Source: a candidate division WOR-3 bacterium
GTDB taxonomy: Bacteria; Hydrothermota; Tepidihabitantia; B3-TA06
NCBI GenBank assembly: GCA_965649265.1
Contig: CBFGKC010000006.1
Span: 114,975 to 178,974, forward strand
DNA length: 64,000 bases
Direction of reading: 5' to 3'
This document shows positions 11,732-26,630 of the stretch, piece after piece. The translations under genes and the position numbers were made by a program. Within the stretch, counting starts at the first letter, position 1; every line of letters starts with the position of its first letter. The notes under the pieces were generated by a model. It did not search any database and was not told the origin of the DNA. It worked only from the letters and a program-made list of their open reading frames with translations.

Positions 11732-13069
11732 TCATTTCACAATTATAACCTTGCAGATTCGGCAAGGATCTACATCGGGGACTATGAAATACACGCCTGC
11801 CTCGTGTCCTTTACCCCATTTGAAAGTGCCTTGTGTTTGAGATGGTTTTATTTTGTCCACCTTGCGGCCGGATGCGTCGTATACATCGGCTTGAAAACCG
11901 CTGGGATGTCCCGAGTATTGCAGCACTATCTCCTTACCGATGGGGGAGAGGAGTTGCCAGGCTGTTATTTGCTCGACAGCAGGTTTTTCCGCGACTCCTA
12001 CGTTGCCAAGGGAATCGGTCTTAATAAGACAGATTTTGTAAATACCGCTTTCCGAGGTCATAACCTCTCCGGTAATAATAAAACCCTTATCCTGGGTTTC
12101 CTGGACACTGAATCCTCTGTTCCATGAGTTTTCGCCGAATTGTTTTGTCCACTGAAAGTTTCCATTTTTATCTAACTTAAGGAGGAGCAGAAAAGTTCCG
12201 TGATCGGTCCTGAAAATTCCGGTTGCGGCTAAACCGCCGTCATATGTCTCATCACAATCATAGGCCTGCAGAGAATCTCTTGCAAAAGACCAGACTGTAT
12301 CCCCCAGTTCATCGAGCTTGAGTATCCATAAAGCCTGCCCGCCGTTTTTCCAGCCTGCAACATAGTACCCACCTTCGGTCTGGTGTATGGAGTAGCCCTT
12401 TTCTCCTTCCGTGGACAAGCCATGGCTTTTTGCCCAAAGGAGATTGCCCTTATCATCGGTCTTGACAACGCCCAGATGAAAGGCTGAATCTCTGCCTGTT
12501 ACAATAAAACCGTTATCTTCAGTTTTTGCGATACACAAACCTTCCAGCCCATACTGGTGCGTCCAGACCGTATCGCCGTTCTTGTCGAACTTCATGATAG
12601 TCCAGGGGGTGCCTGTTGCAGCATATCCGTCTGCCGTTTCGATTACACATTCGCCATAAGAAAAACCACTATTATTGCCAATCGCCTGAGTCCATAAAGT
12701 GTCGCCATAAGGGTTCGTTTTTATCAACCACAAATGAACCGTCTGCCAGCCACCCGCACAACTACCCACGAGCGTATATCCTTCGTCAGTTGTTTGGATG
12801 ACAGAAAGGCCTTTACCGCCGTAAGCTTTTGAATCCTTGTATGTTTTAGACCATTGGATTTCGCCCAAAGGATCGGTTTTCAGGAGGCAGGTTCCGGCTA
12901 CTATATATCCTCCATCCTTTGTTTGCTTGACGGAGTATCCTGAATTGAAATCAGCGTCACCGTAAGTTTTCATCCAGCCGGCAACACTCGACAGAGGGAA
13001 TATCAGCAACCCAAGAACCGTCAAGACTATGTTTGTCAGAGGATTAAACACTAACCTCGATTTTTCCAT
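11732..13069 (-). CDS. Secreted repeat protein (same ~50-aa repeat family as 2652..4340) with T9SS-type C-terminal domain
   Basis: N-terminal hydrophobic segment LTNIVLTVLGLLIFPLSSVAG. Repeats such as VKQTKDGGYIVAG...KTDPLGEIQW and IQTTDEGYTLVG...WLIKTNPYGDTLW. C-terminus IVLQYS...DVYDASGRKV...GVYFIVPDVDPCRICKVIIVK. Confidence 0.7.
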   Translation of the reverse strand: MEKSRLVFNPLTNIVLTVLGLLIFPLSSVAGWMKTYGDADFNSGYSVKQTKDGGYIVAGTCLLKTDPLGEIQWSKTYKDSKAYGGKGLSVIQTTDEGYTLVGSCAGGWQTVHLWLIKTNPYGDTLWTQAIGNNSGFSYGECVIETADGYAATGTPWTIMKFDKNGDTVWTHQYGLEGLCIAKTEDNGFIVTGRDSAFHLGVVKTDDKGNLLWAKSHGLSTEGEKGYSIHQTEGGYYVAGWKNGGQALWILKLDELGDTVWSFARDSLQAYDCDETYDGGLAATGIFRTDHGTFLLLLKLDKNGNFQWTKQFGENSWNRGFSVQETQDKGFIITGEVMTSESGIYKICLIKTDSLGNVGVAEKPAVEQITAWQLLSPIGKEIVLQYSGHPSGFQADVYDASGRKVDKIKPSQTQGTFKWGKGHEAGVYFIVPDVDPCRICKVIIVK

Positions 13070-13157: not shown

Positions 13158-14459
13158 CTAGCTCGCGTAAGGGAACAGGAACTTTAGCGATGCGCCGAAG
13201 CGGTAGAACTTTTCGGTATACAAATCTTCCTCCAGCCCGAACTTCTTGGACCAGGTCGCGTACTCGAAGGAACTGTTGAGGACAACATACGAAGAGATAG
13301 GTATGCCTATCCCTGCGGTTACACCTTTGAGATACTTTGGTGTGTGCTGGCCTGAGTCGGCCTGCGGGATCGCGTCAAAGTAGAAACCTCCGCGTACTAT
13401 CACAGGCGATACGAATTCGGCACCGAAGCGGAACGTGGAACCGTCGTTCACGCCGAGCCTTGAGCCTAAGGCCTCGACGGCAGTGAAGAAGCGAGTCTGG
13501 AATTCACCTGAAAGATTGAGGAAAGGCAAAATCTTCGACCGCAAACCGACGGTGAAGACGCCGGGCAACATGTAGGCTGTTGAGTCATCTACCTGGTGTT
13601 TTATCTGAATTCCATTAGTGTCCAATACAAGCGTTGAATCAAACCAAGTAATCTCCGTTCCGGAAAGGCTTTCCTCGCCCCATCTCCAGCCCCAGGCTAT
13701 AGGTGATCGATATGAGAAGCTTATACCCAACTGGGGAAAGGGTTCCGCAAACGCGCCTACAGTGAAAAAATTTCCTGTCGAGGAGAAGTTACCTTTGTAT
13801 CTTATTCGTGTTTCATCGTATATACCGGAGGTGTCCCCGTCTTCAATCTCAAGATCATCGTAAACGCTTACTTCGTAATAGCTGCTTTTGAGCTTCTCTA
13901 GTGCGCTGAAGCTGAAGGCCAGACCAATGGAGTAATTGTCCAGTATGCTCATTGCGATCGCCGGGGTTATTACCCTTAAACCGCCGGTTGCGGTATCGGT
14001 CATCTTATAACTTCCGTTTTCGAATTCCCAGTTAATCTCCCTGTTGACGGCATTATCAATATGTAGGTGATAGCCGAAAGCAGGATAGAGCACAGCGTAT
14101 TCCGCGATCTGGATGGGCAAAGCTAAAGAGACGTGTGTGAACTGGGGGATGGTGTTATATTTTGTGTAGTATTGCTCTTCTTGTATCTCTTCCTGGCCGA
14201 AACCCCAGTAAAGCCTTCCGCCGATCTCCATTTCAAGATAATCAGCGTCCAGCAAAAGAGCAGGATTGAAAAAGATGGCGTTCGAACCCTGAGCGCTGAC
14301 CGATCCGGTATTGCCCATGCCGCAGGAACGGACATCCACGACGGTGGGATTAATTGCGTCAACCATAAATGCATAAACGGTTGAATTTACGAAAAATAGC
14401 GGTAACAATACGACCAAAGTCTTAAAGGTCGCTTTTTTTTCAAATCCTGACATGCACAT
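13158..14459 (-). CDS. Putative outer-membrane beta-barrel protein (PorV/FadL-like N-terminal motif)
   Basis: ATG 14459 after GGAGGT (track ORF extends to 14567). Signal-like FKTLVVLLPLFFVNSTVYA. The motif GMGNTGSVSAQGSNAIFFNPALLL resembles the G-x-G-G...NPA motif of PorV/PorQ/FadL-like barrels. Sequence shows alternating amphipathic pattern. Weak family call. Confidence 0.45.
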   Translation of the reverse strand: MCMSGFEKKATFKTLVVLLPLFFVNSTVYAFMVDAINPTVVDVRSCGMGNTGSVSAQGSNAIFFNPALLLDADYLEMEIGGRLYWGFGQEEIQEEQYYTKYNTIPQFTHVSLALPIQIAEYAVLYPAFGYHLHIDNAVNREINWEFENGSYKMTDTATGGLRVITPAIAMSILDNYSIGLAFSFSALEKLKSSYYEVSVYDDLEIEDGDTSGIYDETRIRYKGNFSSTGNFFTVGAFAEPFPQLGISFSYRSPIAWGWRWGEESLSGTEITWFDSTLVLDTNGIQIKHQVDDSTAYMLPGVFTVGLRSKILPFLNLSGEFQTRFFTAVEALGSRLGVNDGSTFRFGAEFVSPVIVRGGFYFDAIPQADSGQHTPKYLKGVTAGIGIPISSYVVLNSSFEYATWSKKFGLEEDLYTEKFYRFGASLKFLFPYAS

Positions 14460-14492
14460 ACCTACCTCCAGGCTTGCCTTTTTTGTATCTAT

Positions 14493-14521
14493 AGTGTATA
14501 CCGAAACATGTGATTTGTCAA
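14493..14521 (-). promoter_or_regulatory. sigma70-type promoter TTGACA-N17-TACACT (minus strand)
   Basis: TTGACA 14521-14516, TACACT 14498-14493, about 30 nt upstream of ATG 14459. Confidence 0.4.
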
Positions 14522-14671
14522 GCCCTTCTGTGAGCTTCTGGTCATCTAAGTCAAGCCAAAAAAACATCTGTAACCGTCAGCCCTCTCAGTCATATCCCGG
14601 CATTGGTCTTACAGACTGAGTTAATTGGAATAATATCCAAATCACAAGCAGAGAAAGATGTGTTACTGAGT

Positions 14672-16112: not shown

Positions 16113-16688
16113 CTAATTATCTTCCTTTTTCTCAGTTCCTGACGTATCCGGTTTGCTGACTATTAGTTTTGCCAGGTGAGAGGTTTCAGAATTAAGCGAG
16201 GATATTTTCATGAAGACCCTGACGGTTTCAGGCGGAAGGCCTCGAACATCCAGCCTCGCTTCCAGAAGTTCCGCGGAGCTGTCGAATTTCCCGTCGACCG
16301 GGTCGAGCGATATAATATAAGGTTCAGCATCCGGTCGGCTAACCGCGGCCGTAGCACTGTATATTATGTCACCAGGTATTTCTGTTCTTCCAAGAACCTT
16401 TATAGTTACGGAATCCGCACCCCTGGTCGGGTTGGGATAGATCAAAAGCGAGTCGACAATCTCATCTGCAGGCGGAGAAAAATGAACATAGTAGCAAGTA
16501 ATCGCCGGTTCATAGTGACGGTGTGTCAGACATCCTATGAGCGAAAGTAAGCCTCCTAGAAGAACCAGTTTAAAATGTCTGGTTGTTCTTGAAAATCGGT
16601 TCTTGCTCTCTAAAACCGAAAGAAGATGGAATACTAAACCTCCCGCTCGGCTCAACAACCCTGAGAGCCTATTACGCAACTTGATCAC
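16113..16688 (-). CDS. Array paralog P1 of 12 (numbered by coordinate): anchored Ig-like protein, unknown family, lipobox variant
   Basis: GTG start. MIKLRNRLSGLLSRAGGLVFHLLSVLE. Lipobox-like LIGC. ITCYY. YPNPTRGADSVTIKV. DGKFDSSAE. Acidic tail KPDTSGTEKKEDN. Confidence 0.8.
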   Translation of the reverse strand: MIKLRNRLSGLLSRAGGLVFHLLSVLESKNRFSRTTRHFKLVLLGGLLSLIGCLTHRHYEPAITCYYVHFSPPADEIVDSLLIYPNPTRGADSVTIKVLGRTEIPGDIIYSATAAVSRPDAEPYIISLDPVDGKFDSSAELLEARLDVRGLPPETVRVFMKISSLNSETSHLAKLIVSKPDTSGTEKKEDN

Positions 16689-16717
16689 TGGTCAATATAC
16701 GGCTGATAGGGATGGTG

Positions 16718-17278
16718 TCAATCCTTTTCTTCCGTAGAGTCAGGGTCCGTCACGACAAGCATTAGTTGTTGCGTATACATGCCTGCCTGGGAGGTGTAGA
16801 AGGTCAGGTCCACCCATGTTGTTTCGGAGACAAGCCCTCCGATATAGAACCTCCCCTGAACGGCCTCAAGCGTGTCCGAAAAATCTCCGTCAACCGCATC
16901 GAGAGGCGTAAGAAGCGTGTCTGATGCCAGTTTTATCGTCGCGCCGGTAATGATGTTGCCTTCTATTCCCGGATCGTAAACCTTGGCCGTCGCCTTCACC
17001 GTTACCGTATCCGCGCCTTTTGTAGGATTCGGCGTAATAGCAGCCTCGGTGACTACCACGGGGTCAATTATGGCCATGTCGTAGCAGGTTGCTATGGGTG
17101 TCTCCGGCTGTGCCCTGAGCCAGCCTGCAACAGTCAGAACGAGACCTAAAACGAAGAGCTTGGTCCACCTCGCCGTCTTTTTAATAGTTCCCTCCTCCTC
17201 CCAGCTTGAAAGAACCGGAAGGAGTTTTGCTCCTATCCTCGTTATGAATGATGAAAGCGCGTTTCGAGTCTTAATCAT
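16718..17278 (-). CDS. Array paralog P2
   Basis: MIKTRNALSSFITRIGAKLLPVLSSWEEEG. ARWTKL plus hydrophobic helix ending WLRAQ. ATCYD. TPNPTKGADTVTVKATAKV. DGDFSDTLE. Tail DPDSTEEKD. Confidence 0.8.
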   Translation of the reverse strand: MIKTRNALSSFITRIGAKLLPVLSSWEEEGTIKKTARWTKLFVLGLVLTVAGWLRAQPETPIATCYDMAIIDPVVVTEAAITPNPTKGADTVTVKATAKVYDPGIEGNIITGATIKLASDTLLTPLDAVDGDFSDTLEAVQGRFYIGGLVSETTWVDLTFYTSQAGMYTQQLMLVVTDPDSTEEKD

Positions 17279-17307
17279 GTTTTACTGTACCTCACTTTTC
17301 CGGACTG

Positions 17308-17865
17308 TCAATCTTTTTCTGTCGAATCGGGTTCAGAAATCACAAGCTGCAGCCCTTCAACATTTATGCCTGCCTGCGGGGTGTAGAATGTGATGTAAAC
17401 CCGGGTGGTTTCGGGTCCAAGCCCGGTGACGCACAGACGGCCTTCAACTGTCTCGAGCGTGTCCGAAAACTTGCCGTCGACCGCACGGAGAGGGACAATA
17501 ACCGTATCGCCGCCAATTCTTGCATCCGCTCCGGAGATTATATTGCCTTCAAGTTTCGAATCGTAGACCCTTGCGGTCGCTCTCACCGTAACCGAGTCGG
17601 CGCCATTTGTGGGGTTAGGCGTAATAGCAGCCTCAGTGATTATTACCGGTTCAATGACGACCGGATCATAACAGGTCGCATACCCCCTGGTCTCTTGGGC
17701 CGAGAGCCAGCCTAGTAAGCCCAGGATGAAACCCAGAATGTAGATTTTTGCAAATCTCGCGAATCCCTTAAGAACCCCTTCCTCCTCCCACCTTGAGAGA
17801 AGCGGGAAGAGTTTTGCTCCAACATTGCTTACAAACGCCGCGAGCGAGCTGCGAGCTTTGGCCAT
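17308..17865 (-). CDS. Array paralog P3
   Basis: AAGGAGG RBS. MAKARSSLAAFVSNVGAKLFPLLSRWEEEG. ATCYDP. TPNPTNGADSVTVRATARV. DGKFSDTLE. Tail EPDSTEKD. Confidence 0.85.
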   Translation of the reverse strand: MAKARSSLAAFVSNVGAKLFPLLSRWEEEGVLKGFARFAKIYILGFILGLLGWLSAQETRGYATCYDPVVIEPVIITEAAITPNPTNGADSVTVRATARVYDSKLEGNIISGADARIGGDTVIVPLRAVDGKFSDTLETVEGRLCVTGLGPETTRVYITFYTPQAGINVEGLQLVISEPDSTEKD

Positions 17866-17929
17866 AAAATTCCTCCTTGACTGCGACTACTCCTGTTATA
17901 CAGTTGCAGGTGCAATAAATTCCCTTAAC

Positions 17930-18469
17930 CTATTCGGTTATCTCGATATCTGAGCTGTCTTCGATTACCTTGTTCTTGCTTGTAGATATTCTGACATGGA
18001 CTTTTGCGTTTGCGGTATCGATACCCCTGATGCTTAACTTCGCCGAGATTTCCTCGTATGAACCGTCAAAAGCACTATCCGCAGCCAGCATCTCCACCGT
18101 GTCGGAATTTGCACCTTTCCCGGTAATGAAACACTGTGCCGATTTTACATAATTGTCCTTGGAGCCTGGGATTATATTGGCTCTGGCTTTGACCATAACC
18201 GAGTCGGCTCCAGCCGTAGGATCAGGCAAAACCTCGATATTATGAATGGGGGGAGGTACAGGCTCGTAGCACGTGACCGGGCAGCAGGCGGTCGAGCCGG
18301 CCGCTCCGGAAAGACCTAATCCTGAAACGAGTGCACTCAGGAATGAAAGCTTCATCCACCTTGCAAGCTTGGGTAGTACCCTGCGTTCCTCGCATCTTGA
18401 GTAGAAGTCAAAAAGCGCAAAACCGGCTTTCCTGAGAATCTCGAAAACAATGTGTCTTGCCTGAGCCAT
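17930..18469 (-). CDS. Array paralog P4
   Basis: The track ORF extends to 18547. ATG 18469 (MAQARHIVFEILRKAGFALFDFYSRCEERRVLP) aligns with the other N-termini and removes the overlap with P5. VTCYEP. LPDPTAGADSVMVKA. Confidence 0.8.
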   Translation of the reverse strand: MAQARHIVFEILRKAGFALFDFYSRCEERRVLPKLARWMKLSFLSALVSGLGLSGAAGSTACCPVTCYEPVPPPIHNIEVLPDPTAGADSVMVKARANIIPGSKDNYVKSAQCFITGKGANSDTVEMLAADSAFDGSYEEISAKLSIRGIDTANAKVHVRISTSKNKVIEDSSDIEITE

Positions 18470-18476
18470 GATACTG

Positions 18477-19016
18477 CTATTCTGATTCCGTGATGTACAA
18501 ATCCACTGTCGTGTAATCTCGCTCCCCTTTATTGGAGGTGGCCTCAATGTTTACACTGCAGGTATCGCCTGCGGCAAGATTGCCTACGTATAATCGAGCT
18601 TCTACGTCTTTCATTCCGTATGGATCGGTTTTCGTGACAATCATCGTTATGGTGTCGTCATTAAGAACACATATCACCTTATCCACATAATCTTCTTCTA
18701 TGCTTACTCCATTGGGGACATTTGCGCTCGCTTCAACGGTTACTGAATCTGAGCCTGACGTCGGATTAGGGGTTATTGAGCAGGTTGCGATTTGAGGTTT
18801 CGGGTACTCCATCGGTGCGTAACACGTTATGCAGTTGAGCATGCTGGCCGCACTCAATGCGGTAATTCCTGTCACGAAGGCTCCGAGGAAGGTCGTTTTT
18901 ACCCACCTGGAAGCCCTTGGCAGTATCCCGCAATCCTCACAGTGGGAGAAGAAGTTGAAGAGTGATGTTCCCATTCTCCTCAAGGTTTCAAAGAAGAGGT
19001 AGCGGCTACTGGCCAT
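18477..19016 (-). CDS. Array paralog P5
   Basis: GGAGG RBS. MASSRYLFFETLRRMGTSLFNFFSHCEDCGILPRASRWVKTTFLGAFVTGITALSAASM. ITCYAP. TPNPTSGSDSVTVEA. Confidence 0.85.
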   Translation of the reverse strand: MASSRYLFFETLRRMGTSLFNFFSHCEDCGILPRASRWVKTTFLGAFVTGITALSAASMLNCITCYAPMEYPKPQIATCSITPNPTSGSDSVTVEASANVPNGVSIEEDYVDKVICVLNDDTITMIVTKTDPYGMKDVEARLYVGNLAAGDTCSVNIEATSNKGERDYTTVDLYITESE

Positions 19017-19031
19017 TGTGCCTCCGGTGAT

Positions 19032-19547
19032 TTATTCAGTTATCTCGAGGTCGATTGTTGTATCCGCTCGCTGGTCTTCATTGTCGTATTCTGTGATTTG
19101 TATGGTTACTGTATCGGGCTCGAGGTCTCCTATATACAACTTCGCGTTCACGGCATATTCATTCGTGTAGTCTCCAGGCTCTATCTTCATGACGGTGGTG
19201 TCATTCTCGAGGATACATATCACCTTTTTCAATTCAATCCCGTTATCGGCAATTGCCTTGGCGGAAACGCTAACAGTGTCGGCCCCTGCCGTAGGATTTG
19301 GTGCCACGGAGGCGTTTTCGATTCGAGGTGATTCAATTGGCAAGTAGCAGCCGGTGGGGATACAGTTGATCATGCTGGCCGCGCTCAACGCGGTAATTCC
19401 TGTCACGAAGGCTCCGAGGAAGGTCGTTTTTACCCACCTGGAAGCCCTTGGCAGTACCCCGCATTCCTCACAGCGAGAGAAGAAGTTAAAGAGTGAGGTG
19501 CCTATCCTCCTCAAGGATTCAAAGAAAAAAAACTTTGTTCTAGCCAT
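19032..19547 (-). CDS. Array paralog P6
   Basis: ATG 19547 after AAAGGAGG (track ORF extends to 19580). MARTKFFFFESLRRIGTSLFNFFSRCEECGVLPRASRWVKTTFLGAFVTGITALSAASM. TGCYLP. APNPTAGADTVSVSA. Confidence 0.85.
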   Translation of the reverse strand: MARTKFFFFESLRRIGTSLFNFFSRCEECGVLPRASRWVKTTFLGAFVTGITALSAASMINCIPTGCYLPIESPRIENASVAPNPTAGADTVSVSAKAIADNGIELKKVICILENDTTVMKIEPGDYTNEYAVNAKLYIGDLEPDTVTIQITEYDNEDQRADTTIDLEITE

Positions 19548-19569
19548 GGTTCCTCCTTTCACTGTATTA

Positions 19570-19597
19570 AATATAATCAACTTGCTCGGATTGTCAA
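19570..19597 (-). promoter_or_regulatory. Internal sigma70-type promoter TTGACA-N16-TATATT inside the array (upstream of P6)
   Basis: TTGACA 19597-19592, TATATT 19575-19570, in the 82-nt P7-P6 gap. Confidence 0.45.
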
Positions 19598-19629
19598 TCC
19601 ATGAAAATCACCTGAAATCCTGGCAGGTG

Positions 19630-20157
19630 TTATTTATCAGTAACGCGGAGAACGGTCGAGCCTATGCCCCAGCCTGAGGTTTTTGAATCGACTTTTACAA
19701 AGACCTGAGTGCTGTCCGTTTTGATTTTCTTCACGTATATGCGCCCGATGAGTTCCTCATTATTCTCGTCGAATGCGCCGTCCCTCGCTATCATCCGGAT
19801 GGTGTCTCCATCGACTATGCACTGGGCTGAGGCTATTATTTCGAGATCGCTTGCGTTTTCAAGTCTGGCTTTGGCGGTAACGGTCACCGAGTCGGCGCCT
19901 TTCGTCGGGTTAGGCTTGACTACTATCTCCGAAACCCTGGGATATACGGCCACAGGTTCGTAGCAGGTCACGAGCCCCTGATCCAGCGGAGGTTTTTTGG
20001 CGCATGCCGCAATGATGGTCAGCCACGCTCCAGCAAGCGCGAGCTTGAGCCAGCGTGATATCCTTGGCAGAGCGCTTCGTTCCTCACACCCGGTCAGAAT
20101 GGAGAACAGTGCCGAGCCTGTTCTCCTCAAAAACCTTGACAGTAACTCTCGCTTCAT
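19630..20157 (-). CDS. Array paralog P7, lipobox variant
   Basis: MKRELLSRFLRRTGSALFSILTGCEERSALPRISRWLKL. Lipobox-like IAAC. VTCYEP. KPNPTKGADSVTVTA. ATGA overlap with the P8 stop. Confidence 0.8.
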   Translation of the reverse strand: MKRELLSRFLRRTGSALFSILTGCEERSALPRISRWLKLALAGAWLTIIAACAKKPPLDQGLVTCYEPVAVYPRVSEIVVKPNPTKGADSVTVTAKARLENASDLEIIASAQCIVDGDTIRMIARDGAFDENNEELIGRIYVKKIKTDSTQVFVKVDSKTSGWGIGSTVLRVTDK

Positions 20158-20726
20158 AACGAGTCCTTTTCAGTGATAAATAGCGGTAATGAAACCAGTG
20201 CTTCTTCACCCTTGGAAGTGGCCGCGTGCACGTAGACGAAGGTGGTCCCGGGTTTAAGACCCGCGACGCTGATGCGTGCCTCAATCATCTCGACGGTATC
20301 CGAGAAGCGGCCGTCCACAGGGTACATCCGGATTTTCCTTGACGTATCAATGGCCATTACGAGCCAAGCATCCGACACGTAATTGTTCTCAAGGCCAGGT
20401 TCCAGCACCCTTGCGGTGCCCGTTATCTTGACAGTGTGCACGCCCCTTGTCGGGTTCGGGCTTGCCTGAACTACTGAGATTTCGGGATCCATCCTTCTCA
20501 TCATGTAACATGTGTGGACAGGACCGTCGCCGTCTCCTCCTGGTCCGGGTCTTGCCTTTTTCCCGCACGAGGCTATCAGGGCGACAACGAGCCCGAGTAG
20601 CGAAACCTTCAAAAAGCGCGCGGTCTTTGAAAATATTGGAGTATCCTGGCATCTCGATAGCGCATTAAACACCAGATTACCTGCATTTCTGAGAACTGCA
20701 ATCAAGCTCTTTCTCATCTTTGCCAT
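20154..20726 (-). CDS. Array paralog P8, lipobox variant
   Basis: MAKMRKSLIAVLRNAGNLVFNALSRCQD. Lipobox-like IASC, then Gly/Pro/Asp linker. HTCYM. SPNPTRGVHTVKITG. DGRFSDTVE. Confidence 0.8.
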   Translation of the reverse strand: MAKMRKSLIAVLRNAGNLVFNALSRCQDTPIFSKTARFLKVSLLGLVVALIASCGKKARPGPGGDGDGPVHTCYMMRRMDPEISVVQASPNPTRGVHTVKITGTARVLEPGLENNYVSDAWLVMAIDTSRKIRMYPVDGRFSDTVEMIEARISVAGLKPGTTFVYVHAATSKGEEALVSLPLFITEKDSL

Positions 20727-20745
20727 TCTGCCTCTCCTATCTCGT

Positions 20746-21288
20746 TTAATCTGGTTCAGTAATCACCAGTTCTAAAGATTCAATTTCAATTTGACCGGAA
20801 GAATTTTCTACCTCTAAGTATATCCATGTCGTTTCCGGCTCAAGGTCTCCAACGTAAAGTCGGCCGACTATTCTCTCCGAAGCGGCGTCGAATTTCCCGT
20901 CAATCGCCCGCATGGGGTAATATATTGTATCTCCATCCATTCTCATGCGGGCTGAGCTTATCGTGCTTTCGCCGCTGTAGTGATCGCTAATCTTTGCCGT
21001 GGCCTTGACGGTTACCGAATCGGCGCCCCTTGTAGGGTTAGGCCTTACGGAAAGTTTGGATAGTTCTATGAGGGGAGGGGGGGCGGGCTTGTAGCACATT
21101 ATGACGTCTTCCTTTGCTTCGAGCGAGAGAGCGCTCACGAGTGCCACGAAAAATCCGAGGAATGTGAGCTTCAACCATCTTGCCGCCCCGGGGAGGATGC
21201 GGCGTTCCTCGAATCCGGAAAACGTTCCGAAAAGCCTTCCGCCAATCCTTGCAAAAAAGTCTGCCAGGCGTTTTCTGAGTTCAGGCAT
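20746..21288 (-). CDS. Array paralog P9
   Basis: AAGGAGGA RBS embedded in the P10 tail codons. MPELRKRLADFFARIGGRLFGTFSGFEERRILPGAARWLKL. IMCYKP. RPNPTRGADSVTVKATAKI. DGKFDAASE. Confidence 0.85.
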   Translation of the reverse strand: MPELRKRLADFFARIGGRLFGTFSGFEERRILPGAARWLKLTFLGFFVALVSALSLEAKEDVIMCYKPAPPPLIELSKLSVRPNPTRGADSVTVKATAKISDHYSGESTISSARMRMDGDTIYYPMRAIDGKFDAASERIVGRLYVGDLEPETTWIYLEVENSSGQIEIESLELVITEPD

Positions 21289-21289
21289 A

Positions 21290-21859
21290 TCAATCCTCCT
21301 TATTCTCGTTGCTGTCCGCTTCCGGTGCGGTGATGATTAATTGCCTCCAGGTGCTTTCCGCGTTGCCTGAGTTTGTCCTCACCACTATGTAAATCCAGGT
21401 GGTCTCCGGCTTGTGATCCCCGACGTAGAGACGGCCTTCGACTGTTTCAAGGGTATCGCCGAACTTACCGTCAACCGCTTTCATCGGATATAAAAGGGTA
21501 TCTCCGGTAAGCTGCATAATTGCTTCGGAAACAGCGGTGTCACCTGAGCAATAATATGCAGATTCCAATTTTGCGGTTGCCTTGACTGTAACGGTGTCTT
21601 TTCCTGCAGTGGGGTTCGGTGTTGCCGAGACATCGAAGATACTTAAGTGAGGTTCCTCAATAGGCACGTAGCACATGATGATATCGTCGTCCGCCTTGAG
21701 CGCTGGCGCGCCCAGCAGGGTTACCAGCAATCCCAGAACCGAAAGCTTTAGCCATCTTGCCGGTCTGCGTAGGATACCGCGTTCCTCCAATCCGGACAGT
21801 ATCCCGAATAAGGAGCCGCCTATCCGTGAAGAGATGCGGGCCAGTAAGCCTTTTGTCAT
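21290..21859 (-). CDS. Array paralog P10
   Basis: The ATG directly follows the P11 stop (TAGATG). MTKGLLARISSRIGGSLFGILSGLEERGILRRPARWLKL. IMCYVP. TPNPTAGKDTVTVKATAKL. DGKFGDTLE. Tail EADSNENKED. Confidence 0.85.
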   Translation of the reverse strand: MTKGLLARISSRIGGSLFGILSGLEERGILRRPARWLKLSVLGLLVTLLGAPALKADDDIIMCYVPIEEPHLSIFDVSATPNPTAGKDTVTVKATAKLESAYYCSGDTAVSEAIMQLTGDTLLYPMKAVDGKFGDTLETVEGRLYVGDHKPETTWIYIVVRTNSGNAESTWRQLIITAPEADSNENKED

Positions 21860-22435
21860 CTACTCCTCCCTGGCAGCGCTCGAATCAGCTGCGAGCGAAT
21901 CAATCCTTGTTACGGTGTAGGACTGCCAAAGAATCTCTTCATCTTCTCTGGAACTCGTCACGTCTATAAAGAACCAGTGGGTGCCGGTATCCAGGTCGCC
22001 TGTGTAAAACATGGCCTCAAGAACCTCAAGAGTGTCGTTAAGCTTGCCGTCCACGGCCTTCATGGGAATCCTCAGGGTGTCACGCTGCCTGGAAAGCCAG
22101 GCGTTTCGGATGTAATTGTTCTCAAGGGTCGGGTCCAGAACTTTTGCAGTTACCTTTACTTTTACCGAGTCCGCTCCTCGAGTCGGATTTGGTGTGATGG
22201 ACACATCCGAAATCTTTACCTCCGGCATCCTCATGGCTACGTAACAGGTCTTAATTGTTTCTACCTCGGCGGAAAGTGCTCCGATGGCTGCGGTAAGAAA
22301 TCCAAGCAGTGAGAGCTTTAACCAGCGCGAAGCGCTGGGCACAATCCCGCGCTCTTCGAATCGCGACAGGAGTGAAAAGAGACCTCCTCCCAGCACTTCA
22401 AGAATCCTTACGACGAACCCTTTCGTTCTCGCCAC
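21860..22435 (-). CDS. Array paralog P11
   Basis: The track ORF extends to 22654. GTG 22435 (AAAGGTGGAG RBS, 1 nt after the P12 stop) gives MARTKGFVVRILEVLGGGLFSLLSRFEERGIVPSASRWLKL, matching the family. KTCYV. TPNPTRGADSVKVKV. Confidence 0.75.
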   Translation of the reverse strand: MARTKGFVVRILEVLGGGLFSLLSRFEERGIVPSASRWLKLSLLGFLTAAIGALSAEVETIKTCYVAMRMPEVKISDVSITPNPTRGADSVKVKVTAKVLDPTLENNYIRNAWLSRQRDTLRIPMKAVDGKLNDTLEVLEAMFYTGDLDTGTHWFFIDVTSSREDEEILWQSYTVTRIDSLAADSSAAREE

Positions 22436-22436
22436 G

Positions 22437-23009
22437 TCACTCCACCTTTGTCGAATCAGTCCTGATAGAATCAGGCTCCGAGACTTCAAAATAAAACCAG
22501 CTCGCTTCCAGTGCATCCTGGGATGTCTGGACGAGCATTGAGATCGAGTACTGGCCCGGTTCAAGATTTCCAACGTAAACCGTACCCTCGAGCACCTCGA
22601 GCGTGTCGTCCATCTTGCCGTCAAGTGCTTTGACCTTGAACCTCGTCGTATCACCGTCCCAGGAGAGCCAGGCGTCCTTTATGAAGTTATCCTTGATATT
22701 CGAGTACATCACCTTGGCCTGGGCCTTCACTTTCACCGAATCCGCTCCCTTCGTGGTATCAGGGGTTACGGACTTCTCTGTTATGATGACGTCGGGAATC
22801 CTCGCGACGATGTAGCAGGTGACTTCCGGATCCCTGGCTTGAAGTGAGAGTGTCGCGACTAGCGAGGCTATGATTCCCAGGGTCGAGATCTTTATCCATC
22901 TCGCGGCACGCGGCATGACGCCTTTTTCTTCTATCATTGTCAGAAAATGGAAAATTGCATCTCCCAGTTTCCCTAACAGCCTGGATAAGAGGTTGCGTGT
23001 CTTGGCCAT
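22437..23009 (-). CDS. Array paralog P12 (first gene of the operon)
   Basis: ATG 23009 after AAAGGAG (track ORF extends to 23087). MAKTRNLLSRLLGKLGDAIFHFLTMIEEKGVMPRAARWIKI. VTCYI. TPDTTKGADSVKVKA. DGKMDDTLE. Confidence 0.8.
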   Translation of the reverse strand: MAKTRNLLSRLLGKLGDAIFHFLTMIEEKGVMPRAARWIKISTLGIIASLVATLSLQARDPEVTCYIVARIPDVIITEKSVTPDTTKGADSVKVKAQAKVMYSNIKDNFIKDAWLSWDGDTTRFKVKALDGKMDDTLEVLEGTVYVGNLEPGQYSISMLVQTSQDALEASWFYFEVSEPDSIRTDSTKVE

Positions 23010-23058: not shown

Positions 23059-23086
23059 CAATATAAGCCCCAAAAGACAGGTGTCA
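23059..23086 (-). promoter_or_regulatory. sigma70-type promoter TTGACA-N16-TATATT driving the paralog array
   Basis: Reverse complement reads TTGACA (23086-23081), cctgtcttttggggct, TATATT (23064-23059). About 45 nt upstream of ATG 23009. Confidence 0.55.
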
Positions 23087-23111
23087 AGCATATCTTACGG
23101 GCGGATACTCA

Positions 23112-23224: not shown

Positions 23225-24547
23225 ATGCATCCATTTCTGGTTTTCTGTTGTTGTTTGATTTCATCTTTGACTTGGAATAGACATTATGATTTTCGGTTTA
23301 GTGACCACTGTAGCGCGCTTGTGCCGGTAGAGGACGGTTACGTGATTACGGGTAACACTATGCGGTATCTATTCGTGCAGAAGGTCGATACTCTGGGAAA
23401 TCAAGTCGGTTACAAAGAGTGGTATAAGGCCGAAGGTTATGACATAGAGAGAATGTCTGATGGTTATATTATTCTTGCGTACAAAGACGAATCTCCCAGG
23501 CACGGGATTTGGTTGGTAAGAACAGATAGCGATTTTGACACACTTTGGAGTAGAAGCTATGGATATAATAATGGAATTATGGCAAAATCTCACTCATTTG
23601 ATTTAACAGATGACAGTGGTTTAGTGATGGTCGGTGAGTGCGGCACGGGTCTTATTGTCTTTAAAACCGATAGTCTTGGTGATAGCTCCTGGGTAAAAAA
23701 ATATTTTCAGTCTGTCTCGATGCGCGCTGGGAATTTTATTGAAGAAACATCTGATCAAGGTTTTATTGTTACGGGAGTTTGTGAGGAACGTTTTTTTGCA
23801 CTGAAATTGGATGAGAATGGGGATTCCTTATGGTGTAAGAAATATTTTGAGGAAAAAACAGGTGAAGGTCTTTGTATAAGAGAAACCTCCGACAAAGGCT
23901 TTATAGTATTGGCTAGGATAAGGTATGGTAGTTCGGATTCCTTGCTTCTCATCAAGACGGATTCTTTTGGAAACGCTTTGTGGGTGAGAAAATTCAATTC
24001 GATGTCTCATTGGACTAGAACATGTTATATTGAGGTTCTGGATGATGGTTATGTTATGATTTCAGGGTCACAAGAAGGTCCATTAGTCAGGAAATTTGAC
24101 GAGTCTGGGAATGTCCTTTGGACAAAGACCTACAATCGTAATTTCGGTTATTTTTCCGGATTTGAAGGCACATGTATTCATTACACATCGGATAAAGGTT
24201 TTATTATTGGCACCGCTTTGGATATATCTCCATACGGATCAGACCTCTGGCTGGTGAAAACCGACAGCCTAGGAAACACGGTTCCTCTTGAATCCGTGAT
24301 AGAGCCAACGGAGACTGCCGTTAGCGAAGTTCATCTGAGTGTTTTGAATTCAGCTGTTGCATATTCCTTACCTGCTGGCGAGCGTTGTTTGTTGAAAATC
24401 TATGATGTTAGTGGAGTATTGAAAAAAGGAGAAATTGTTTGTGGCCGCGGAGAGATGCGACTAAAAGAATTCCCTGTAGGGGTTTATTTCGCTGAGTTAC
24501 AGTTCATGCGAAGTGCTGAAATCAAAAAGGTATTAGTTTTTCCCTAG
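23225..24547 (+). CDS. Secreted repeat protein (same ~50-aa repeat family as 2652 and 11732) with T9SS-type C-terminal domain
   Basis: Repeats such as IEETSDQGFIVTG...LKLDENGDSLW and IRETSDKGFIVLA...LLIKTDSFGNALW. C-terminus LLKIYDVSGVL...GVYFAELQFMRSAEIKKVLVFP. Confidence 0.7.
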   Translation: MHPFLVFCCCLISSLTWNRHYDFRFSDHCSALVPVEDGYVITGNTMRYLFVQKVDTLGNQVGYKEWYKAEGYDIERMSDGYIILAYKDESPRHGIWLVRTDSDFDTLWSRSYGYNNGIMAKSHSFDLTDDSGLVMVGECGTGLIVFKTDSLGDSSWVKKYFQSVSMRAGNFIEETSDQGFIVTGVCEERFFALKLDENGDSLWCKKYFEEKTGEGLCIRETSDKGFIVLARIRYGSSDSLLLIKTDSFGNALWVRKFNSMSHWTRTCYIEVLDDGYVMISGSQEGPLVRKFDESGNVLWTKTYNRNFGYFSGFEGTCIHYTSDKGFIIGTALDISPYGSDLWLVKTDSLGNTVPLESVIEPTETAVSEVHLSVLNSAVAYSLPAGERCLLKIYDVSGVLKKGEIVCGRGEMRLKEFPVGVYFAELQFMRSAEIKKVLVFP

Positions 24548-24576: not shown

Positions 24577-25017
24577 TTGTTCAAGTACAATCCCCGCGTG
24601 AAGCAGCTCTTATCGGACTGGCGGGTGCTTTCGGCGATCGCGATACTCGGATGGGGGACCTGGGGCATACTCTCAAAGATTGCCCTGAAACAGGTTGACT
24701 GGCGGGTCATGATGCTGATTACGTCCGTAGCCGCCCTTCCTCTGGCTTTCATACTCGGGATTCCGAATTTCGACTGGAAGTTTAACCGCTACATCCTTCT
24801 CGCTTTTTTTGCAGGAATCGGAGCCGAGGTCGCGACGCTCTCCTTCAACCGCGCGATTCAAAAGGGCGGACCCGCGAACGTCGTGGTCCCACTCACCTCA
24901 CAGTACGTGCTCGTCATAGTGCTTTTTTCGACCATTTTCCTAAAAGAGCCTATAACGTGGCAGAGAATCGTCGGCATCGTTGCCGCGCTCATAGCAATTG
25001 TGATGCTTTCGCTGTGA
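24577..25017 (+). CDS. Small DMT/EamA-like membrane transporter (single EamA-type domain)
   Basis: 146 aa with 4-5 hydrophobic helices. FFAGIGAEVATLSFNRAIQKGGPANVVVPLTSQYVLVIVLFSTIFLKEPITWQRIVG resembles an EamA domain. TTG start, or the downstream GTG. Confidence 0.55.
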   Translation: MFKYNPRVKQLLSDWRVLSAIAILGWGTWGILSKIALKQVDWRVMMLITSVAALPLAFILGIPNFDWKFNRYILLAFFAGIGAEVATLSFNRAIQKGGPANVVVPLTSQYVLVIVLFSTIFLKEPITWQRIVGIVAALIAIVMLSL

Positions 25018-25322
25018 TATTTTTCCTTATCGAATGAGTGCAAATCGAACCACCTCTTTCGTACTCTCCTTCTTACCCCCGGGATAGTATTGAGGGCGTC
25101 ATTGCGTTGTTCACAGGATTACTGATATGGTTTTGCATGCAGAATTGCAAAGAATACTATATTTAAGAAAACACCCGATTTTCAGGCGAAGTTAAAGATA
25201 CAAATCGAAAATCATTACGGCGGCGACAATCATTGCGAATCAACGCTATAATCCCTAATGCACAATTGATGAATTTCCTGTGACTTGATACGGTGGCCTT
25301 CGGCAAAAGCCGAAATCTACTG

Positions 25323-25538
25323 TTATTTCCTTGAAGCTTTGTTCAGTTCTTGCAGAACTTTTTCAGGCTCGGCAATATTGTAGCGGTCCATAAGCTCACC
25401 AACGGTTCCCCAGGCTGGTTCGCCGCAAACAAAGCAAGGCATACCAAACGCTATGAAAACCTCGACCGTTTCAGGATATTTCGAAATCACCTCTTCGATG
25501 ACGGATTCCCTCGAAATCTCAAAGTCTCCTTTATTCAT
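25323..25538 (-). CDS. DUF1858-like small redox/disulfide protein
   Basis: 71 aa. ...VISKYPETVEVFIAFGMPCFVCGEPAWGTVGE... shows the C-x-x-C pattern typical of DUF1858 (hybrid-cluster-protein-associated) domains. Confidence 0.55.
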   Translation of the reverse strand: MNKGDFEISRESVIEEVISKYPETVEVFIAFGMPCFVCGEPAWGTVGELMDRYNIAEPEKVLQELNKASRK

Positions 25539-25578
25539 TATAATCTCCTTAAGTTATGTTAGTTATAATAACAAATAC

Positions 25579-25607
25579 TTGACAATTCGGTGATTCTTTA
25601 GCATAAT
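25579..25607 (+). promoter_or_regulatory. sigma70-type promoter TTGACA-N17-CATAAT
   Basis: TTGACA 25579-25584, CATAAT 25602-25607. GGAGG RBS before GTG 25631. Confidence 0.45.
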
Positions 25608-25630
25608 TATACGGACTATAGGAGGATGCA

Positions 25631-26005
25631 GTGAATTTATCTCGTGCCGAGCGAATACAAGAATTACTCAACGATATCCGCAGGATTGATCCTGATATAG
25701 AAGGTACAGCCGTTGCGACAAATGAAGGCCTTGTCATTGCTTCTTCCCTTAACGAGAATCTTGACGAAGAAAGACTTTCGGCCGTATGTGCAGCAGTAAA
25801 CGAGGCCATTCGCAGGACGGCGGAGGAACTGGATAAAGGCAGGCCAACAGAGGTTCTCATTCATGCCCCGCAAGGCTACATTTTCATCATGAAGGCAGGA
25901 GCGGCTTCGCTTCTTGTTGCCGTCACACGGCGTACGGCGAATGTCGGACTCATCCTGTTGGACATGCGTAAGATAGCACGCGAAGTAACACCTATCCTCG
26001 ACTAA
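25631..26005 (+). CDS. Roadblock/LC7 (MglB-like) domain protein
   Basis: IEGTAVATNEGLVIASSL...ERLSAVCAAV...VLIHAPQGYIFIMKAG...LLVAVT pattern. 124 aa. Confidence 0.6.
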   Translation: MNLSRAERIQELLNDIRRIDPDIEGTAVATNEGLVIASSLNENLDEERLSAVCAAVNEAIRRTAEELDKGRPTEVLIHAPQGYIFIMKAGAASLLVAVTRRTANVGLILLDMRKIAREVTPILD

Positions 26006-26006
26006 A

Positions 26007-26630
26007 TCAATTTCCGCTCGTTCGGAAGTACACCTTGAAATCGCTCCAGTCCTTGGGTGTCTGGAGAGGAGGAAATGTGTCAATTTCTTTTGTATCTGTA
26101 CTGTCAACAGGTAAGTGGGGGAGAAAGATTGTTTCGGCCGCCACGTCTTTCCAATTTGATATATACCAGTAGTTGCCCCGTTTTATAATCTCGAGCTTCA
26201 TTCCACCTGCAAGGGTTTCGTAGCCGTCGATGGCTGTAAGAATCAGGTAGTTTGCGTCAAGGTAGGCCATGGTATCGTTTGCGGAGAAAGAAGTAGTGTC
26301 CATTTGAAGCAGAAGGGGGGGGATCTGTCTGGACGTGGCGAGCTGGTTGAACATCTTCTGGGTGAGCCTTGATTCGGCCGAGTCCTCCCACGGGGTATAC
26401 GCGGTTCCTCTTGTGGAATCCTCGGGGTTGAACTTGAAGCTGAAGGTATCCAGACACAGAAAGAATTTTTCGAAATCAAGCGTGTTGTAGGAATCCACAA
26501 GATTGTGAATGACGGCCATGGAATCAATGGGAGTCAATTCCCTTGCATAGTCGCGGGGGTCAAAAAACTCGCAGCCAGCCGCCAGAAGTACTAAAATAAA
26601 ACCCAAAATCACGCAAAAGAACTTTTTCAC
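26007..26630 (-). CDS. Lipoprotein of unknown function
   Basis: MKKFFCVILGFILVLLAAGC lipobox signal. 207 aa. Confidence 0.6.
   Translation of the reverse strand: MKKFFCVILGFILVLLAAGCEFFDPRDYARELTPIDSMAVIHNLVDSYNTLDFEKFFLCLDTFSFKFNPEDSTRGTAYTPWEDSAESRLTQKMFNQLATSRQIPPLLLQMDTTSFSANDTMAYLDANYLILTAIDGYETLAGGMKLEIIKRGNYWYISNWKDVAAETIFLPHLPVDSTDTKEIDTFPPLQTPKDWSDFKVYFRTSGN

Follow-up and report, generated by a model that had tools for sequence, protein, structure and literature searches.

An amphipathic helix ahead of the predicted signal peptide in a tandem family of small immunoglobulin-like proteins encoded beside a radical SAM gene in a candidate division WOR-3 bacterium

Most known cases of conserved extensions that precede signal peptides come from type V secretion, where the name for them is extended signal peptide region (ESPR) and where their role is still debated. 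Here, we describe a conserved N-terminal module, residues 1-33, that lies ahead of the predicted signal peptide in a family of small proteins with an immunoglobulin-like (Ig-like) domain encoded by a candidate division WOR-3 bacterium (contig CBFGKC010000006.1 of assembly GCA_965649265.1). The window, meaning the whole 64,000-nucleotide stretch of this contig that was analysed (contig positions 114,975 to 178,974, forward strand), holds 12 tandem paralogous genes, par1 to par12, encoding proteins of 171-191 aa, which by inspection of the open reading frames (ORFs) exactly occupy positions 16113-23009 of the minus strand. They are followed by a gene for a radical S-adenosylmethionine (radical SAM) enzyme with a SPASM domain (Table 1).

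The proteins were aligned in three sets, comprising the 12 window paralogs (alignment A1), 29 sequences (A2) and, as a local alignment, 83 unique family members. Across the 83 sequences the module reads M-A-K-[TA]-R-x2-L-A-x-[LIF]-L-x-R-x-G-x2-L-F-x-F-L-S-R-[CW]-E-E-R-G-[VI]-L-P and is followed by a basic n-region (residues 34-41, [RGK]-x-A-R-W-L-K-L, with R37 and K40 nearly invariant), an h-region (residues 41-54, with a hydrophobic stretch of 12-14 aa in which L44 and G45 are nearly invariant) and a c-region with the column consensus A53-L54-S55-A56. A poorly conserved linker then leads to an invariant Cys-Tyr pair (C65-Y66, usually within [TM]-C-Y-x-P) and to the Ig-like domain, which starts with the motif PNPTxGADSVTVKA. 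An AlphaFold2 model of par4 (mean predicted local distance difference test score, pLDDT, of 86.6) has a helix at residues 2-28, a break at 29-32, a second helix at 33-55, coil at 56-73 and an Ig-like beta-sandwich at 74-176 with pLDDT above 95, for which Foldseek against the PDB returned generic E-set/Ig matches only. No Pfam or NCBIfam model matches the paralogs (hmmscan).

An earlier reading of this DNA, made from the sequence alone, had described an extra segment of this kind in every paralog, and the pattern that it gave fits all 12. The same sequence-only reading had called the segment the best conserved region of the proteins, a claim that does not hold, as both the Cys-Tyr motif and PNPTxGADSVTVKA score higher; pairwise identity is 0.36-0.41 in the module (residues 1-33), 0.50 in the n-region, about 0.6 over TCYxP and 0.66-0.73 over PNPTxGADSVTVKA. 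Over whole regions of the window paralogs, residues 1-57 are only a little better conserved (37% identity) than the rest (32%), and comparison of orthologs shows quicker change in the module than in the mature part (dN 0.24 vs 0.15). A pooled comparison with orthologs from two further assemblies gives dN/dS values of 0.275 (module), 0.21 (n- and h-regions) and 0.16 (mature part), at dS of 0.74-0.94. With dN/dS of 0.275 at dS of 0.88, the module is under purifying selection, and it is therefore the peptide, rather than the DNA, that is constrained. Other exported proteins of the window carry ordinary short signals, for example MKKFFCVILGFILVLLAAGC at 26007-26630, so the extension is specific to the family and not a habit of the organism. 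One homolog (P0051, 201 aa) has a 28-residue Glu/Gly-rich acidic insertion between the N-module and the n-region (…LLSGWEEGEVRSEGAFGEEGEEGEGGLEEGWGRSRVARWLKIS…), which shows that the module is a separable unit ahead of the signal peptide.

The module is translated. Shine-Dalgarno (SD)-like cores (AAGG, GGAG, GAGG or AGGA within 13 nt upstream of the annotated start) are present at 10 of the 12 annotated starts, several of them strong GGAGG or AGGAG sites, and are missing only from par9 and par12. A true start lying downstream at the n-region, an outcome against which the sequence-only reading had hedged, would make the segment an artefact of annotation, and par1 and par9 do hold an in-frame ATG with an SD-like sequence (codons 32 and 39). 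Such internal starts, however, are not conserved across the paralogs, no in-frame ATG, GTG or TTG occurs in codons 2-45 of par10 and par11, and the segment is kept in 83 sequences with the low dN/dS given above at near-saturated dS. We give an artefact a negligible chance, and a mis-called start is effectively excluded. For annotation, these long N-termini are to be accepted as genuine and kept, without cutting them back to the n-region.

Over positions 3-28 of the module, mean hydrophobicity and conservation each show a periodicity that peaks at 95 degrees per residue (4.5 and 5.5 times the mean, respectively; n=83). The module is an amphipathic alpha-helix whose hydrophobic face is also its conserved face, made up of L8, L12, G16, L19/F20, L23/S24 and E27. 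In each module 3-7 residues are basic and 1-4 are acidic, and the hydrophobic moments are 0.47-0.70; because the helix (H1 hereafter) is so charged, it is predicted to be unable to span a membrane. Two known kinds of N-terminus were considered for the region and rejected. A type IV prepilin (class III) leader fits poorly, with G30 present in only 43 of the 83 members and R34, R37 and K40 following it, and hmmscan gave no match of the paralogs to the N_methyl Pfam model. A degenerate twin-arginine translocation (Tat) signal fits no better, as the n-region, x-A-R-W-L-K, has a single Arg and no twin-arginine.

The sequence beyond the module looks in every respect like a complete cleavable signal peptide, of either signal peptidase I or lipoprotein type, judging by its basic n-region, its h-region of 12-14 aa and its cleavage-type motifs, either A-L-S-A or a lipobox. 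Sec signals typically combine a basic n-region with an h-region of 10-15 aa and with either small residues at -3 and -1 or a lipobox of the form [LVI][ASTVI][GAS]C. The lipobox ([IL][AS][AS]C followed by K or R; IASC, IAAC, ISAC or similar) is found in 20 of the 83 members, including par5 and par6, aligns with the A-L-S-A column of the other members and is conserved in orthologs from other genomes. Since a lipobox is meaningful only if Lgt and Lsp process the protein, the part upstream of it should be removed, and the module is probably lost together with the signal peptide. Paralogs with and without a lipobox both carry the module, so its role would precede cleavage.

A profile search of 1.84 billion representative proteins gave 514 matches. 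All those that span the N-terminus are family members of 170-200 aa, falling into about 45 clusters at 50% identity, and the remainder match by the Ig-like domain alone, which is repeated in tandem in these giant proteins, whose Big_13, Y_Y_Y or Ig_J signatures are weak. Because the same Ig-like domain otherwise repeats in giant proteins of Big_13/Y_Y_Y type, its distribution points to an extracytoplasmic location of the cargo. A profile of the N-terminal 60 aa found nothing at E ≤ 0.01 in 5.8 billion proteins, which leaves undecided whether the N-terminus occurs with other cargo. The sequence-only reading had also allowed that the segment might not be conserved elsewhere; the module is kept in homologs from other metagenomes and metagenome-assembled genomes (MAGs). 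The family comprises 83 unique homologs from at least 7 loci, and two of the locus records are named candidate division WOR-3. Literature searches returned no description of the system.

When related loci were gathered with an alignment of the radical SAM enzyme, the array was found to end in the radical SAM gene at all seven loci with enough flanking sequence (the window and loci L001, L002, L004, L005, L006 and L081). These arrays hold from 7 to at least 17 paralogs, with a single gene recovered on the 3-kb contig of L006, and their radical SAM/SPASM genes share 64-89% identity with that of the window (the protein-cluster table gives 66-89%). A distant subfamily (P0129, P0133, P0144, P0149 and P0161) keeps the TCY motif and the Ig domain behind a shorter pre-helix, MARIKRNxLQKxCRxLLAGxRKGxLP, which ends in [KR]-G-[FL]-L-P directly ahead of the h-region. 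At loci L078-L080 (P0149, P0161 and neighbours) the genes form small arrays of 2-3, split by an unrelated gene called as 273 aa (293 aa in L078; 304 aa as an ORF), and the absence of a radical SAM gene from these contigs is a caveat to every reading considered below.

The enzyme encoded at the end of the array has, as had been noted from the sequence, no N-terminal PqqD-like recognition element (RRE) of the kind used for RiPPs (peptides made by ribosomes and then modified post-translationally). Its cluster is C21-x3-C25-x2-C28, and its Pfam matches at an E-value threshold of 0.1 are to Radical_SAM, SPASM and Fer4_12 only. The gene cluster holds no PqqD-like ORF, dedicated leader peptidase or exporter and thus lacks what marks an RRE-type RiPP leader system. 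Compared across the window and the related loci, the operon likewise has no peptidase, ABC exporter or PqqD gene, and use of the general Sec route and of the signal peptidases would fit this gene content. Against the named NCBIfam families (AhbD, NirJ, GeoRSP, PqqE, MftC, TIGR04133 and others), no equivalog cut-off was reached; the best match was AhbD at 111.8 bits against a cut-off of 500, and all 88 matches were far below. The closest solved relative by sequence is an anaerobic sulfatase-maturating enzyme (anSME; 4K36/4K37, E about 1e-9).

Homologs of the enzyme form a tight WOR-3 clade at 66-100% identity and, after a gap, a large group at 40-44%. The latter comprises 531 proteins at E ≤ 1e-30, all generically named, and members of it were recovered from MAGs of Planctomycetota, Phycisphaerae, Kiritimatiellia, Myxococcales and Chloroflexota. 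At about 35 of the 39 such loci with upstream sequence, the adjoining upstream gene encodes a protein with 1-4 copies of [ST]-C-Y (hand count). These loci span L007-L052 (for example L015:6724-8796, L018:7569-9995, L033:9261-9989 and L042:7274-7975), and the partner proteins are unannotated. The copies stand in contexts such as IYRNPPTDxxVTCYDMxYLPP or ATCYEPM in planctomycetes and TCYAPMPP and WRSNxPITCYEP in Chloroflexota. Cys-Tyr is the sole feature common to all these partner proteins and, by our own estimate assuming about 1% Cys and about 3% Tyr, would be expected by chance less than 0.1 times per protein; as the only shared feature, and one rare by chance, it is the likely target of the enzyme. 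Hundreds of related radical SAM/SPASM genes adjoin genes for proteins with export-type N-termini that share [ST]-C-Y only, which points to an uncharacterised post-translational modification.

The N-termini of the partner proteins differ by lineage. Chloroflexota partners have a textbook Tat start, MSISRRDFMKxFG, and no pre-helix. In planctomycetes, Kiritimatiellia and myxobacteria, the partners start with MP[YQH]R, followed by a Gly-rich hydrophobic H1 of about 22 residues, an acidic residue, GPRWKRRL and a second hydrophobic helix, H2, which often ends in a lipobox-like Cys (TSGC, TPGC, IVGC, LPAC or LVAC). The WOR-3 module takes the position of this H1 in the same register, with an acidic residue around 27-28, Pro around 33-37, RW at 37-39 and Lys at 40 (K40); we treat this correspondence as analogy only. 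The model NF058595 ('lipo-invert C-terminal anchoring domain') was considered and set aside, as it scored 12-18 bits against a cut-off of 37 on the N-termini of three planctomycete partners and matched none of the WOR-3 proteins. At L035, L044 and L046 (Pseudomonadota and unclassified 'bacterium' MAGs), a third type of partner lies upstream of related radical SAM genes; it starts MPHIFFE-LE-R-STQ, has no obvious signal peptide and is rich in SPW/SSW repeats, and YCYA occurs in some of these proteins.

Among known systems, the closest in layout is the ESPR, a conserved 25-residue extension that is no signal on its own and stands ahead of a sufficient signal peptide (PMC8151025). It has been associated with the targeting of some autotransporters after translation, with slower export and with transient retention at the inner membrane, and export of EspP lacking it switches to the co-translational route, although a review judges its role in the choice of targeting pathway to be small (PMC8151025). 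The WOR-3 proteins likewise have a conserved extension of about 25-33 residues before a complete signal peptide, an N1-H1-N2-H2-C order and a total length of more than 50 residues; their C-terminal signal half looks sufficient, and the role that we propose is again one of post-translational or slowed export. They differ in lineage (WOR-3, and not Proteobacteria or Fusobacteria), in cargo (a single Ig-like beta-sandwich of about 110 aa, and not an autotransporter or TpsA passenger), in that a quarter of the members are of lipoprotein type, and in their genetic linkage to a radical SAM enzyme. The ESPR model PF13018 was not matched when 5 paralogs were searched against Pfam (hmmscan, E ≤ 1). Of the options offered by the sequence-only reading, an ESPR-like extended signal peptide is thus the best supported, as an analogue with the same N1-H1-N2-H2-C layout; homology to the ESPR, with PF13018 unmatched and the cargo not of type V, is the part that does not stand.

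Tat signals of proteins matured in the cytoplasm are long, like the WOR-3 N-termini, and they ensure post-translational export; the Chloroflexota counterparts carry S-R-R-D-F-M-K, and the A-R-W-L-K of the WOR-3 proteins resembles the F-L-K end of the Tat motif. The WOR-3 proteins, in contrast, have a single Arg, and their pre-helix has no Tat equivalent. On the enzyme side, anSME modifies its substrates in the cytoplasm before export. This radical SAM/SPASM enzyme is not a RiPP maturase; it acts on a short motif of sulfatases, in which Cys or Ser is oxidised to formylglycine (PMC10114670). Like it, the window enzyme is a minimal RRE-less radical SAM/SPASM protein (about 340-390 aa for the type); unlike it, the motif here is [ST]-C-Y-x-[PM] and not C/S-x-P-x-R, and the candidate substrate is an Ig-like protein and not a sulfatase. 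QhpC, the gamma subunit of quinohemoprotein amine dehydrogenase, has an unusual N-terminal leader of about 28 residues and is modified in the cytoplasm before export, in a system with a dedicated peptidase and exporter. Its partner QhpD is a radical SAM/SPASM enzyme that modifies Cys residues of this protein subunit (PMC10114670). The likeness lies in the pairing of a radical SAM/SPASM enzyme with a protein substrate in which Cys is modified, and not in sequence, since no similarity was detected, and no peptidase or exporter is encoded here. The rSAM-with-lipoprotein pair of TIGR04133, described in the manner of Haft, is to our knowledge the only catalogued concept of such a pairing, and here too a radical SAM/SPASM gene stands beside genes for small predicted lipoproteins or secreted proteins. 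With a score of 83 bits (cut-off, 425), the window enzyme falls outside TIGR04133, and the partner family is unrelated.

The reading that we favour, tentatively and at somewhat under an even chance, is that the module is the N1-H1 half of an ESPR-like extended signal peptide, which holds the precursor for modification of Cys-Tyr by the radical SAM enzyme and is then removed. The whole would be a two-part cleavable Sec-type signal of 55-57 residues, N1-H1-N2-H2-C, specific to the small Ig-like secreted proteins and lipoproteins of WOR-3. H1 would stay on the cytoplasmic side and would be followed by an acidic pair and turn (EE-R-G-[VI]-L-P), a normal n-region (R-x-A-R-W-L-K), an h-region of 12-14 aa and a c-region that is ALSA-like, for signal peptidase I, in about three quarters of the members and a lipobox, for Lgt/Lsp, in about one quarter. 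The module would most likely keep the precursor on a slow post-translational route, either because it packs on or masks the h-region or because it rests against the inner leaflet. Export of this kind would be needed because a cytoplasmic radical SAM enzyme must act before its substrate leaves, and the delay would let the oxygen-sensitive enzyme modify Cys-Tyr, which lies about 7-20 residues past the predicted cleavage site, before signal peptidase I or II removed the module with the signal peptide. In this proposal we infer cleavage, topology, the hold or delay function, the chemistry and targeting of Cys-Tyr, and the module's influence, if any, on export or modification, by reasoning from sequence. 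Several observations weigh against it: the conserved face includes G16, S24 and E27, for which a specific contact with a protein is no worse an explanation than a general holding role; the evidence for cleavage consists of motifs; W38-L58, taken as one helix, would be about 21 residues long and might serve the members without a lipobox as an uncleaved anchor; action of the radical SAM enzyme on the paralogs is itself deduced from gene order and motif; no radical SAM gene lies on the contigs of the distant subfamily (L078-L080, 3-8 kb); and homology between the WOR-3 and planctomycete N-termini is unsupported (hhalign probability 1.3%).

If the module were instead a true leader or docking peptide, as the sequence-only reading also considered, its helix would bind the radical SAM enzyme through G16-F20-S24-E27, present Cys-Tyr to the active site in the manner of RiPP leaders or the QhpC leader, and then be removed with the signal peptide. 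The strict linkage of array and enzyme (7/7 loci) would follow from this, the invariant non-hydrophobic G16, S24 and E27 within the stripe suggest a specific interface, and the module is both family-specific and dispensable for a working signal peptide. Precursor binding by radical SAM/SPASM enzymes that have no RRE is known, for example from QhpD and from maturases of the darobactin and dynobactin types. The window enzyme, however, has no extra domain relative to its 40-44% relatives of 336-377 aa, and the Cys-Tyr partners of those relatives either lack the module (Chloroflexota, with Tat) or have a hydrophobic helix in its place (Planctomycetota). Since Chloroflexota partners carry a plain Tat-type signal and no pre-helix, the enzyme may recognise a local motif, as does its closest solved relative, anSME (E about 1e-9), for which a short local motif suffices and which is not known to need a leader. 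Between the module and Cys-Tyr there are also about 30 residues, with a hydrophobic helix among them, and we consider docking unlikely, with a chance of perhaps one in five. Somewhat more doubtful still is that the proteins stay uncleaved in the membrane with a type II (N-in, C-out) topology, in which the module remains as a cytoplasmic in-plane helix that stabilises the anchor, clusters the paralogs or contacts a cytoplasmic partner. An amphipathic helix does adjoin a positively charged juxtamembrane motif, W38-L58 could make the helix of about 21 residues already mentioned, the small-residue motifs G16/S24 and G45/G52 fit helix-helix packing, and the planctomycete counterparts, with their truly hydrophobic H1, may form a two-helix membrane hairpin. 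On the other side, 24% of the members, par5 and par6 among them, have a canonical lipobox at the end of the h-region that holds across genomes, A-L-S-A stands at this column in the others, the uncharged hydrophobic core covers only 12-16 residues where a type II span takes at least 18-20, and several planctomycete and myxobacterial H2 helices end in the lipobox-like Cys motifs listed above. Of the type II anchor put forward in the sequence-only reading, the amphipathic helix is supported, and a permanent anchor is disfavoured by the short hydrophobic stretch and the cleavage motifs.

A sorting or quality-control tag for a dedicated route (YidC, SecA, a holdase or a FadL-like outer-membrane protein), unrelated to the radical SAM step, seems improbable. 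Such a role would suit a module that is family-specific, conserved and without a known domain, and a gene of 424-469 aa with a faint likeness to FadL/TodX follows the radical SAM gene in the window, L001, L002 and L004; the ESPR, too, has been proposed to act through contacts with Sec or YidC (PMC8151025). That gene is absent, however, from L005 and L081, its Pfam match has E = 0.036, and no candidate receptor gene co-varies with the array. Returning to the extended signal peptide that delays export, three kinds of N-terminus (Tat, hydrophobic H1-loop-H2 and amphipathic pre-helix) could, by analogy, fit one logic of post-translational export. A Tat signal brings such export about directly, and a two-part signal might do so in the manner proposed for the ESPR.

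More broadly, the pre-helix, the RWxK signal and [ST]-C-Y may mark an undescribed pathway of several phyla in which an anSME-like radical SAM/SPASM enzyme modifies Cys-Tyr before export and lineages differ in their timing device, a view that we offer as speculative and hold to be possible at best. If it is true, the time window would be set by Tat in Chloroflexota, by the hydrophobic H1-loop-H2 in Planctomycetota and Myxococcales, and by the amphipathic pre-helix in WOR-3; Cys-Tyr would lie near the mature N-terminus in WOR-3 and further in, often repeated, in the other lineages; and in WOR-3 the pre-helix would serve for holding or docking in a new kind of protein modification, applied to a surface-protein family of 7-18 members. 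By comparison with known systems, the more novel element appears to be the cross-phylum association of this radical SAM clade with Cys-Tyr, and the module itself would be an extended signal peptide. As an independent case of a pre-signal-peptide extension, found in an uncultured phylum on small Ig-like proteins and lipoproteins, it has in its genetic tie to a putatively cytoplasmic radical SAM enzyme a testable reason for delayed export.

Table 1. Coordinates of the tandem array, its N-modules and the associated features (positions of the window).
Feature	Position	Strand	Remarks
Tandem array, 12 paralogs	16113..23009	-	layout per gene: N-module, n-region, h-region, c-region, linker, C-Y, Ig-like beta-sandwich
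par1 gene	22437-23009	-	
par2 gene	21860-22435	-	GTG start
par3 gene	21290-21859	-	
par4 gene	20746-21288	-	
par5 gene	20154-20726	-	
par6 gene	19630-20157	-	
par7 gene	19032-19547	-	
par8 gene	18477-19016	-	
par9 gene	17930-18469	-	
par10 gene	17308-17865	-	
par11 gene	16718-17278	-	
par12 gene	16113-16688	-	GTG start
par1 N-module, aa 1-33, MAKTRNLLSRLLGKLGDAIFHFLTMIEEKGVMP	22911..23009	-	C-Y codons 22812-22817; signal region extends to about aa 56 (22842-23009)
par2 N-module, aa 1-33	22337..22435	-	C-Y codons 22241-22246
par3 N-module, aa 1-31	21767..21859	-	C-Y codons 21668-21673
par4 N-module, aa 1-33, MPELRKRLADFFARIGGRLFGTFSGFEERRILP	21190..21288	-	C65-Y66 codons 21091-21096
par5 N-module, aa 1-33	20628..20726	-	C-Y codons 20505-20510; predicted signal peptide ends in lipobox IASC, then GKK
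par6 N-module, aa 1-31	20065..20157	-	C-Y codons 19960-19965; predicted signal peptide ends in lipobox IAAC, then AKK
par7 N-module, aa 1-33	19449..19547	-	C-Y codons 19344-19349
par8 N-module, aa 1-33	18918..19016	-	C-Y codons 18819-18824
par9 N-module, aa 1-33	18371..18469	-	C-Y codons 18266-18271
par10 N-module, aa 1-33	17767..17865	-	C-Y codons 17668-17673
par11 N-module, aa 1-33	17180..17278	-	C-Y codons 17081-17086
par12 N-module, aa 1-33	16590..16688	-	GTG start; C-Y codons 16491-16496
Radical SAM/SPASM gene, 340 aa	15089..16111	-	directly downstream of par12; C21x3C25x2C28, no RRE
Sigma-70-like promoter match, TTGACA-16-TATATT, 11/12	23060..23087	-	50 nt upstream of par1 start; consensus scan only

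The sigma-70-like match upstream of par1 is the likely promoter of the array, and the next gene upstream of par1 lies on the opposite strand. With tandem genes, an adjoining radical SAM gene, a promoter-like site upstream and an opposite-strand gene beyond it, the array and the radical SAM gene look like one operon. Further promoter-like matches on the minus strand at 17284-17311 (TTGACA-16-TACAGT) and 16694-16721 (TTGACA-16-TATATT) end 5 nt before the starts of par11 and par12, respectively; an SD-like core is missing from par12, and that of par11 is no more than a distal GAGG, and these matches may be internal promoters giving leaderless transcripts or may be due to chance. Another promoter-like site lies upstream of par7 (19570-19597). 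Proteins par7 and par8 share 82% identity over residues 1-57 (module and signal peptide) and 44% in the mature Ig-like part, a pattern that could reflect either gene conversion at the 5' end or fast divergence of the exported domain after a recent duplication.

Neighbours of the array and radical SAM gene include a FadL-like outer-membrane protein, proteins with a type IX secretion system (T9SS) tail and EamA. The first of these is an ORF listed as 469 aa at 13158-14567 (minus strand), separated by a gap of about 520 bp from the radical SAM gene upstream of it; its FadL/TodX-like Pfam match is not significant, and it has syntenic counterparts of 424-429 aa in L001, L002 and L004, four loci with the window included. 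Two paralogs of about 440 aa, at 11732-13069 (minus strand) and 23225-24547 (plus strand), flank the block formed by the array, the radical SAM gene and this ORF. They are 26-33% identical across their BLASTP alignments, have internal repeats ('GY-IV-G ... KTD--G---W') of beta-propeller-like appearance and, by eye, T9SS-like C-terminal tails; neither has a significant Pfam domain, and the equivalent upstream genes of L001 give weak Por_Secre_tail matches. The upstream neighbourhood is conserved across the WOR-3 loci, the called genes in L004 and L081 being EamA, DUF1858 and Robl_LC7. In the window, an EamA half-transporter at 24577-25017 is the sole member confirmed by Pfam, and the ORFs at 25323-25538 (71 aa) and 25631-26005 (124 aa) are assumed, by position and size, to be the DUF1858 and Robl_LC7 equivalents. 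This EamA/DUF1858/Robl_LC7 neighbourhood (24577-26005 in the window) can be used as an anchor to locate further arrays.

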